Below are positions 18,001 to 21,000 of a stretch of 63,526 bases of DNA, in pieces. The stretch comes from an archaeon (lineage in GTDB: Archaea; Iainarchaeota; Iainarchaeia; Iainarchaeales; 1-14-0-10-31-34): positions 1-63,526 of the forward strand of contig JBDRIL010000005.1 of assembly GCA_043815885.1 (NCBI GenBank). Direction: 5' to 3'. Made by a program: the position numbers. The number at the start of each line of letters is the position of its first letter. The stretch's first letter is position 1.

Positions 18001-21000
18001 AGTTCCAGTGGTTTTAATGGAATCTCTTTTCCGTAAAAGCCAATGTCTTTTTCCTCGTCAACCTTTACTATATATGACGGAACACTTACCTTTTTTCCAC
18101 TTATTGCAATGTGTCCGTGGGTAATGAATTGCCTTGCTTGTTTAACTGTATTAGCCAAACCTTTTCTCCATACAATTGTTTGAAGCCTTCTCTCTAATAA
18201 TTCTTCTGTCTTCAGACTCAGCACGTCATCAAGTGTTGCAGTCTTTTTAGCTAAACCTGTTCTCCTCAGACTTTCAAGCAATTCCTTTTCTTTCTTTGCT
18301 TTTTCTTCCATTGAGAGTGCAAGCAGCTTTCTTGCATTCTGTCTCTTTTTCCTGAGAAAGGTTTCACTTAACCATATCTCTTTCTTGTTCTTTAATCCAT
18401 AGGTTTCCGTTAACTTTTTTTCCGCTTCTATCCTGATTTTGTCCCATGGCTTTTTTGGTGTAAAAAACTTCTTTCCAATTTTTTTTGGGTCGCCCATTTT
18501 CATCTATCCTCTTACTTCTTTTTTTCTTCCTTTTTTGTCTCGATAGTTTTTTTGCCTGCACTCCTTGCGTCTTTCTTGATTACTCCTATGACTCCGCCTT
18601 TTCCTCTGTGTGTTGATTTAGTCTTTTGGCCTCTCACAGTCAAACCCCATCCAAGTCTTAGTCCTCGGTAGCTCTTTATTTTGCTCAGTCTTTGTAAGTC
18701 CTTTCTTTTGTTAAAGTCTAGTTCTCCCATTATGTAATGTTTATCCTTTCCGCTTTCAAATTCCTTTCTTGTATTCAAGCACCAGGAAGGGATTTCATGC
18801 TTTTCTGGGTTTAATACAATGTCCTCAAGCTTTTTATCCATTTCTTCCGGTATTTCTCCCAGCCTTGCGTTTTCATCTGTTTTTGTTAGATTGAAGAAGG
18901 TTTTAGCCATTATATTTGCTGTCCTGTGGTTTATTCCTTTTAAAGCCATTAATGCTCTCCCCACACCCAGTTTTCCATCTAAGTCCTTTCCTGCGATCCT
19001 AACTATAAGCCTTTTTTCCGTCTCCATTTCAATCACTTTCCTTCCTTCTTCAATAAATCAATGATTTTTTCTTCCTTCATTCCTTTTTTTATCTCTATTT
19101 TTTTTTCTGTTGGAAACAAGTGAACTATATTGCATTTCCTTTTCTTCACTCTCTCCCCCATTACAGTAGCAAAATTTTTTTCTGTCCCTATGACTACACA
19201 TTTCTTTCCCGCTTCTCTTCCCTTCTTTTTAATGCATATCCTTCCTGTTTCTATTACATCCATTTATTTATCACTTCTTTATTTTTTCAATGTACTTTTT
19301 TATTATTTTTACTGCGCTCTCTCTGTCAAGCTTGTCTACATTCAGCACCAAATCATAGTCCTTTAAATCAAGCAGATTCACTCCATAGTATTTCAGATAA
19401 TCGTCCCTGATTTCTTTATCCATTGCCTCAATCCTTTCTATTGCTTGATCCATTTCTACTCCTTCTTTTTCAGAGATCCTTCTTGCCCTCATCTTCTTTC
19501 CTGAAAGCAGGAAAACCTTTGCTTCTGCATTCTCAAGCATTAATCCACTCAATACGTGCTCTATTATTGTTTCTTCTTTTTCTCCTTCCCTCATTATTTC
19601 TTCCTTCCTTTTCTCGCTTCTTTCCTCTTCACTCTCTCCACTGATTCTTTTCTCTATTTCTTCTTCTCCAATATACTTCATTCCTGTTTCCAGAGCAAGA
19701 AGTTTACTTAATTCCCTTGTTTCTGTTCCCTTGTATCCTCCAATCGTTACAATCACTTTAGCTACAACCCCTTTTCAATTACTTCCACGTAATTCCTTAA
19801 AATCAATTCCACTTCTGTTAACTTCTTTATCTTCTGGTTTACCTTCGCTGCCTCTTCCATTGCATTTGTCCTGCATTGATTGCATAAAACCCCTGCAAAT
19901 AAAGCTGTAGGACGCCTCTCTGTTTTGCTCAGTCTCCTCACTTCACTTGGCTTTTTTCCGTGAGGAACTCCATGCAATTGCTTCCTGCATACCGCACAAT
20001 GATGTTTTCCACTCTTCTTTTCTTCCCTTCTCTCAACTGTTTTTCCTCCAGGAGTTCTCCTGAACTTTTTTTTCTTGTATCTTTCGCTTCTCTTTACCAT
20101 TTAAATATCACTTTTTCCTTATCTTTTCCATTAATTTCATTCCACCATTCAATGCAAGGCTAGTAACCAATGCAATCAAAATATACCATACAAGATAAGG
20201 CGCAAAAGTCCAGTTTATTACTGGAATCGTAAAGCTTCCAACAGGAAAAGTCGCGCCCTGATACTGCCTTACAACAAGAAAGAATATTGATCCAAATATT
20301 GCAAGTGAAACCACCATATACTTCATGCTTTCACTCATCATCTTGCTTGTTGCCTGCATCATTTCCTGCTGTACTTCATTTAATTCATTTTTTGATTTCT
20401 CGTCTGTCTGCTTCATTAATTCCTTCATCCTTGCCTGTTTTTCCTTCATTTCCTGCTGCAGTTGTTTCTGTCTTTCCCTCGGCATTAATTTTTTCTGGAG
20501 CACGATTGAAATTAATGTAATCATTATAGCGATAAGCGCTATATCCATTGCCGGATTAATCAATCCAAAACTCATTTCATTCAGCCTCCAAACAATCTCC
20601 TGATTAATGGATGTGTTTCCATTAACTGCTGTTTCGCTAATTCTTCATACAGCCTATAAACAATTCCCACTGTCAGCAATATTCCTGTTCCGCTTCCAAG
20701 TGCTCCTGTTAAGTCAGCAAATCCTGCCAGGAATCCAACAAACGCTGAACCAAGAATCGCTATCGGGGGAATATACCTGTCAAGAATTCCCCTGATTATC
20801 CTTGGGTCTCTCCTGAATCCAGGGATATACATTCCTGAACGGCTCAATTGATTTGATACTGCCTCAGGGCCCTGTCCTCCCATTTCAACCCAAAACTTTC
20901 CAAAAACAATACACACTGCAATCAAAATAACCAAGTAAATCATTGCATGAATTATTTGTCCTCCCAATGGAAGTGCTGCAACATCATTCCAGTACGTGAG

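Follow-up and report, generated by a model that had tools for sequence, protein, structure and literature searches.

The archaeal box H/ACA sRNP, made up of Cbf5, Nop10, Gar1, L7Ae and a guide RNA, is the system lost in the archaeal order described here, and it has been called universal in eukaryotes and archaea (PMC11077068). The same source reports that neither Cbf5 nor Pus10 is dispensable in S. islandicus. In Haloferax, cbf5 can be deleted and Pus10 is the physiological psi55 enzyme (PMC7991803, PMC7912444); Pus10 is itself reported essential in Haloferax volcanii (PMC7991803), and no tRNA modification is said to be more universally conserved than psi55 (PMC7912444). The cbf5-deleted strains of Haloferax volcanii and Thermococcus kodakarensis resemble our order in being viable without Cbf5, and in them the rRNA pseudouridines vanish while psi55 stays via Pus10. 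The order differs from these laboratory deletions in that its loss arose in nature and long ago, and in that Pus10 is missing as well from 69 of its 182 sampled genomes. A further likeness is offered by the Mollicutes, reduced cells with loss of TruB and TruA: M. genitalium, M. pneumoniae and the hemoplasmas have no psi55 synthase TruB and keep RluD (PMC4014445). Mollicutes thus retain RluD for 23S helix 69, whereas in the order we found no rRNA pseudouridine synthase of a known family.

Other DPANN phyla show partial erosion of the H/ACA set (Gar1, Emg1) and, in some of them, loss of Pus10. In Supplementary Data 25 of PMC13473441, the share of genomes with Cbf5 is 57% for Iainarchaeota, 75% for Micrarchaeota and 100% for Nanoarchaeota. 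Gar1 stands at 0% in Micrarchaeota, Nanoarchaeota, Aenigmatarchaeota and Nanohaloarchaeota; most DPANN phyla have 0% for Emg1, and the same figure is recorded for Pus10 in Nanoarchaeota, Altarchaeota and Undinarchaeota. A genome-wide survey's note, from which this analysis set out, had treated the loss of Nep1 or Gar1 as special, and that view has to be given up, as both stand at 0% in most DPANN phyla of the same table. In contrast to the order, the phyla that lose Pus10 keep Cbf5 at 100%; what sets the order apart from them is that both psi55 enzymes are lost. The Cbf5 gap is therefore visible in the published table and undescribed there, because the 57% is given without comment; the main text of that paper makes no mention of pseudouridine. 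In the literature searched, which covered few subscription journals, no archaeal lineage lacking Cbf5 was described: PMC10833476, PMC3608112 and PMC8481954 gave no such account, and the part of the PMC7414124 supplements that was covered gave no match. The sharper result, and what appears to be new here, is that the loss is graded and reaches its end in genomes that lack Cbf5 and Pus10 alike.

The window, by which we mean the whole stretch of 63,526 nucleotides that was analysed, is a contig of a genome (G000) that is 92% complete, and window numbering is contig numbering. G-numbers denote genomes, f-numbers families, C-numbers contigs and L-numbers the loci compared; "the order" is Iainarchaeales, a name taken from the survey's note, and its relatives are metagenome-assembled genomes, most of them available as fragmented assemblies. 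The closest named relatives of the uS13 protein carry the labels Candidatus Diapherotrites or Iainarchaeum-type. The window features that matter here are:

8879..9244, minus strand: L7Ae (PF01248, E 1e-26), the sole retained H/ACA core protein
16677..18503, minus strand: uS4, uS11 and RpoD, which lie downstream of the slot and complete the operon
18512..19027, minus strand: uS13, 171 aa from the ATG at 19027 (PF00416, E 6e-32), the downstream flank of the slot
19028..19032, minus strand: 5-nt spacer, at the position of the ~1 kb cbf5 of sister families f34 and f35
19033..19263, minus strand: eL14, 76 aa, the upstream flank of the empty cbf5 slot (KOW match below cut-off)
19271..19756, minus strand: Cmk-like gene of the same operon (PF13189)
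19762..20100, minus strand: eL34 (PF01199)

The survey's note had placed eL14 and uS13 of G000 5 nt apart within the gene order SecY-EMC3-eL34-Cmk-eL14-uS13-uS4-uS11-RpoD, and the sequence bears out both the distance and the order: eL14 ends with the TGA at 19033 on the minus strand, 5 bases follow, and the uS13 ATG is at 19027. We find no cbf5 remnant in the spacer, and an in-frame GTG of uS13 at 19036 overlaps the eL14 stop. The eL14 protein is 53% identical to that encoded by the G153 gene preceding cbf5. The note was also right that cbf5 lies between eL14 and uS13 outside the order, the slot being filled in G152, G153, G155, G156 and G163, but in calling this slot universal it went too far. 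Among 80 named archaeal cbf5 loci, eL14 lies within 3 kb in 18 and both eL14 and uS13 do in 6, a count that may be too low, because the tblastn queries were short and some of the loci truncated; the eL14-cbf5-uS13 slot is common, though not universal. Within the order the slot is empty in 7 of the 7 genomes examined (G000, G002, G015, G016, G020, G021 and G111), and for this reason its emptiness is no assembly artefact.

Profile searches across G000 agree with the claim that Cbf5, Nop10, Gar1 and Nep1 are all absent. The Cbf5 profile PF01509 finds nothing at E<=10 (controls 14/14), an unfiltered sister-order profile matches only Pus10, and that weakly (E 0.005), and local profiles for Nop10, Gar1, Nep1 and TruA give a best E of 0.19 or worse. 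Two further slots are empty: between aIF2alpha and PAC2, where outgroups have nop10, 43 nt separate the annotated ORFs, and between eS8 and TFB, where family f34 has gar1, there are 143 nt. All three slots (cbf5, nop10 and gar1) are empty in G016 as well as in G000; in sister families f34 and f35, Cbf5, Nop10 and Gar1 occupy the standard operon slots.

The wider survey drew 182 genomes of the order and 19 from other orders at the level of the class (for Cbf5, Nop10, Pus10 and a second TruD), with samples of 109 and 12 for Gar1, Nep1 and TrmY and of 179 and 17 for TruA. Searches read through stop codons, and because the genomes are related the resulting counts are not independent events. Cbf5 was matched in 2/182 order genomes as against 16/19 of other orders (2/151 in a separate order-level draw) and was not found in the single-contig genomes G002, G016 and G030. 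Full-length Nop10 was found in none of the 182, as against 16/19; five partial matches to its zinc knuckle, one barely above cut-off, lie within ORFs of 400-1211 aa and were set aside. Gar1, searched with a profile that detects 3 of 4 control archaea, was matched in 0/109 order genomes versus 10/12 elsewhere, and Nep1 in 0/109 versus 9/12. As a control for incompleteness, TruD was recovered from 101/104 order genomes and from 53/53 high-quality genomes of the class. An order-wide loss of Cbf5, Nop10 and Gar1 is thus upheld by the 182- and 109-genome samples, the three empty slots and the TruD control; the wording that the loss extends to all sampled Iainarchaeales needs softening to near-total, as there are 2/182 Cbf5 matches, both of which can be explained.

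Retention of fibrillarin, L7Ae, Nop5, Pus10 and TruD in G000 was confirmed, fibrillarin having been found in 5/5 genomes examined, G000 included, and Nop5 having been identified by 55% identity to a Pfam-confirmed Nop protein of G016. With fibrillarin, Nop5 and L7Ae, the box C/D sRNP set of G000 is complete; L7Ae is a part of the C/D particle and of the ribosome as well as of the H/ACA particle. An Rfam scan of the window, run without a positive control, matched one tRNA and no H/ACA guide. Tsr3 is absent in 5/5 genomes, and this is uninformative because G153 is among them. A comparison of 16S helix 31 between four order genomes and G153 revealed no telling change.

The two Cbf5 matches within the order differ in kind. 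The G111 protein is a canonical Cbf5 whose gene sits on a contig of 1.7 kb, and in the tree its partner, at support 1.00, is a Thermoplasmatales protein; given also the empty operon slot of this genome, we rejected it as a retained copy, and it is a Thermoplasmatales contaminant. The G021 gene (C11, L003:7456-8262) lies off the operon and encodes a Cbf5-like protein of 268 aa that keeps the HxGxLD motif and has no match to DKCLD or PUA, the domains that accompany the TruB catalytic domain in Cbf5. It groups, at support 0.99, with short Cbf5-like proteins whose names assign them to Pacearchaeota and Aenigmatarchaeota; members of this family are 250-275 aa long and are candidate guide-free psi55 synthases. 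Contamination is disfavoured by tetranucleotide use, in which the contig is nearest to the genome's own ribosomal contig (0.0128, against 0.0256 for the next). G021 is 83% complete, and we found in it no Nop10 and no Pus10 match except through the Cbf5-like gene. We infer that the gene was horizontally re-acquired from other DPANN archaea, a single case, and its product is predicted to be, probably, a stand-alone and guide-free psi55 synthase.

Other orders were said to keep Cbf5, and this does not hold for G151 and G154, which represent two other orders: in both, eL14 directly precedes uS13, and neither Cbf5 nor Nop10 is found. Trees built from up to 20 operon proteins recover the order as monophyletic (1.00; SH-aLRT 99.9-100), and G151 and G154 are sister to it in all three trees, weakly (0.69 in FastTree; SH-aLRT 10.4 and 20.8). 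The empty slot that they share with the order reflects either one earlier loss or two parallel losses. In two genomes of family f37 (G160 and G161; L018, L020), a shortened Cbf5 of 281-287 aa is encoded outside the ribosomal operon and Nop10 is present; G160 has no Gar1 or Nep1 match.

The order is also without TruA (PF01416; 0/179 genomes versus 9/17 of other orders) and TrmY (0/109 versus 7/12). Pus10, with which the order had been said to make psi55 alone, is a different matter: that reliance holds for G000 and not for the order, because Pus10 is missing across many of its genomes. The Pus10 profile is sensitive in that it cross-matches Cbf5 in other orders, and it matches 113/182 order genomes, one of them solely via the G021 Cbf5-like gene. 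Pus10 is missing in 70/182, including 21/55 of the high-quality genomes and 8/8 other members of the G000 family; the Pus10-free families are f1 (0/8 besides G000), f20 (0/21) and f16 (0/4). Both Cbf5 and Pus10 are missing in the 69 genomes mentioned above. A tree of 46 genomes based on TruD and eRF1 interleaves carriers and non-carriers of Pus10, a pattern that reflects repeated loss, transfer or a combination of the two. In G016, assembled as one contig and 99% complete, unfiltered profiles covering ~99% of the sequence find no Cbf5, Pus10, TruA, Nop10, Gar1 or Nep1, and TruD is the only pseudouridine synthase that they recover. The Pus10 of G000 is encoded on another contig:

C31:22169-23182: Pus10 with a GREDxD catalytic domain (PF21238, E 8e-65)

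G000 is the only pus10 carrier among nine genomes of its own family. Its gene has 31.7% GC where the neighbours have 35.6-42%, and it is absent at the same site in five relatives; it was possibly regained by transfer within the order. That the contig is a contaminant is disfavoured by its typical composition, by single-copy genes that are without duplicates, and by a gene order equal to that of five family relatives without pus10 there.

The Pus10 proteins of the order are trimmed. We fetched 27 and aligned 25 (2 were not recovered by motif search), and both N-terminal CxxC pairs and the thumb-loop His are absent in 25/25; Pus10s of other orders have the CxxC pairs in 4/4 and the thumb His in 3/4. 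In M. jannaschii Pus10, the C106A/C109A and H376A/R377A changes are reported to lower psi54 formation in vitro and not in vivo (PMC3753934). It is plausible, going by these motifs, that the trimmed Pus10 is a psi55-only enzyme that makes no m1psi54, a shift that remains at the level of suggestion because the M. jannaschii mutants still form psi54 in vivo. The tRNA genes keep U55 in 39/44 cases in G016 and 42/43 in G000 (p=0.2); the five G016 exceptions have C or G at position 55 (L285, L286, L289, L304, L320). Relaxed selection on U55 was considered and set aside, the difference between 5/44 (G016) and 1/43 (G000) non-U genes being non-significant.

We consider it likely that pseudouridylation in this order collapsed stepwise and reductively, via clean single-gene deletions from conserved operons, a reading drawn from what genes the metagenome-assembled genomes contain. 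As a first step, the order's ancestor lost cbf5, nop10 and gar1, each from its own operon, with truA also gone; L7Ae, fibrillarin and Nop5 stayed, and because they are kept C/D-guided methylation is predicted to remain. Within the order, trmY was lost and Pus10 shed both CxxC pairs and the thumb His, with a presumed effect on its activity. In a third step, pus10 went missing from scattered lineages, leaving TruD as the sole recognisable synthase in 69/182 genomes, apart from the few that have a second TruD. The outcome would be rRNA without guided pseudouridine, and an unmodified U55 in Pus10-less members; the G021 lineage, in which no Pus10 was found, would have regained a short Cbf5-like enzyme, probably acting as a stand-alone psi55 synthase. 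We lean slightly towards the stronger proposition that dozens of species have no rRNA pseudouridine and no psi55, with TruD as their only synthase, and that the short Cbf5 of G021 would serve as a guide-free psi55 synthase in vivo. As Pus10 is reported to be essential elsewhere, its loss without a substitute would be surprising, and this raises the odds of a hidden replacement.

It is also possible, if doubtful, that temperature drove the change, in which case the enzymes would have been dropped on a shift to mesophily and would have persisted, or been regained, in thermophiles. On IVYWREL, a temperature proxy computed here on few proteins, families f34 and f37, which keep Cbf5 in genomes of as little as 0.4-1.0 Mb, appear thermophile-like (0.454-0.475), and G021, with its regained Cbf5-like gene, is the highest of seven order genomes (0.456). 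If temperature were the whole explanation, one might not expect the mesophile-like G153 (0.409) to keep Cbf5, Nop10, Gar1, TruA and TrmY; nor does the presence of Pus10 in the order track IVYWREL (p=0.15, among related genomes). Temperature may be an additive cause beside stepwise collapse, and not an alternative to loss. Genome size alone does not explain the loss either, because f34 and f37 keep Cbf5 with smaller genomes.

Stepwise collapse could also be mistaken in its outcome if the modifications were kept despite gene loss, whether by a TruD of widened specificity, a second TruD or an unrecognised enzyme, which we regard as unlikely. TruD forms psi13 of tRNA. The enzyme (TruD/aPus7; PF01142, GxKD motif) is present in nearly every order genome, as the incompleteness control attests, and the T-loops still read UUC, both in keeping with a replacement. 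Pus7/TruD has been reported to act on further sites in P. abyssi and yeast, but in S. islandicus deletion of aPus7 altered U13 only (PMC11077068). The second TruD, of 330-360 aa and with an intact GxKD, forms its own clade (L228-L238; e.g. G043:C21:30291-31289 and G171:C2:164211-165215) and occurs in 36/182 order genomes, among them 25 of the 34 genomes of f10, and in 0/19 of other orders. Against its being an order-wide substitute, it is absent from 146/182, including G000, G015, G016 and all 21 of f20, and it is found mostly in families keeping Pus10; being so patchy, unlinked to Pus10 loss and mostly alongside Pus10, it cannot be a general substitute. A bacterial replacement of the RluA/RsuA type (PF00849) was sought in 121 genomes and was found above cut-off in none, with one sub-threshold match that contains 7 stops. 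That cbf5, nop10, gar1 and pus10 merely moved, diverged or became intron-split and were missed by incomplete genomes or strict profiles is largely refuted and hardly credible: most of the assemblies are fragmented, two of the proteins (Nop10 and Gar1) are small targets, the Gar1 profile misses one control in four and cbf5 has moved in family f37, but TruD is found in every high-quality genome, three single-contig genomes are without Cbf5, the searches pass through stops, the Pus10 profile catches Cbf5, and three separate slots are empty.

If stepwise collapse is the right reading, why does it matter? The order-wide loss of H/ACA breaks the claim that this machinery is universal in archaea and eukaryotes, and the order names cells that are predicted to lack psi55. 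If true, it would constitute a natural minimum of pseudouridylation, below that of the Mollicutes, which keep RluD. The case rests on gene content, from which Pus10-less cells may translate with almost no pseudouridine; the loss lies within a reduced lineage, and the viability of cbf5 knockouts was already known. One clade now offers a graded series, from the full set through no H/ACA, a trimmed Pus10 and TruD only to a regained short Cbf5. Such a series lets one ask which pseudouridines translation needs, what role the N-terminal zinc site of Pus10 plays, and whether Cbf5 works guide-free in vivo. A practical consequence is that Cbf5, a phylogenetic marker in PMC13473441 (Supplementary Data 5), is systematically missing in the order.

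Some smaller observations concern the gene neighbourhoods compared here. G000 has a second Cmk-like gene at C26:7130-7711 besides the operon copy at 19271-19756; the operon Cmk of G153 is about equally similar to both, and the operon copy is absent in G002, G015, G016, G020 and G021. Outside the order, a tRNA gene, mostly tRNA-Ser, often lies 3' of cbf5 (L192:9736-9835; many of L135-L185). In G153 it sits between cbf5 and uS13, and in the order the tRNA, too, is gone from the slot. The PAC2 gene that follows aIF2alpha in G000 (C10:47466-48260) apparently contains two frameshifts, each in an A run; the G016 copy is in one frame, and the frameshifts of G000 would be homopolymer sequencing error or slippage. 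The two TFB halves at the ends of G000 contigs (C26:1-275 and C30:2-637) probably belong to a single gene that was broken up in assembly. Finally, eRF1 adjoins truD in 41 of 46 loci of the class (G000:C61:7173-9660; L244-L283).
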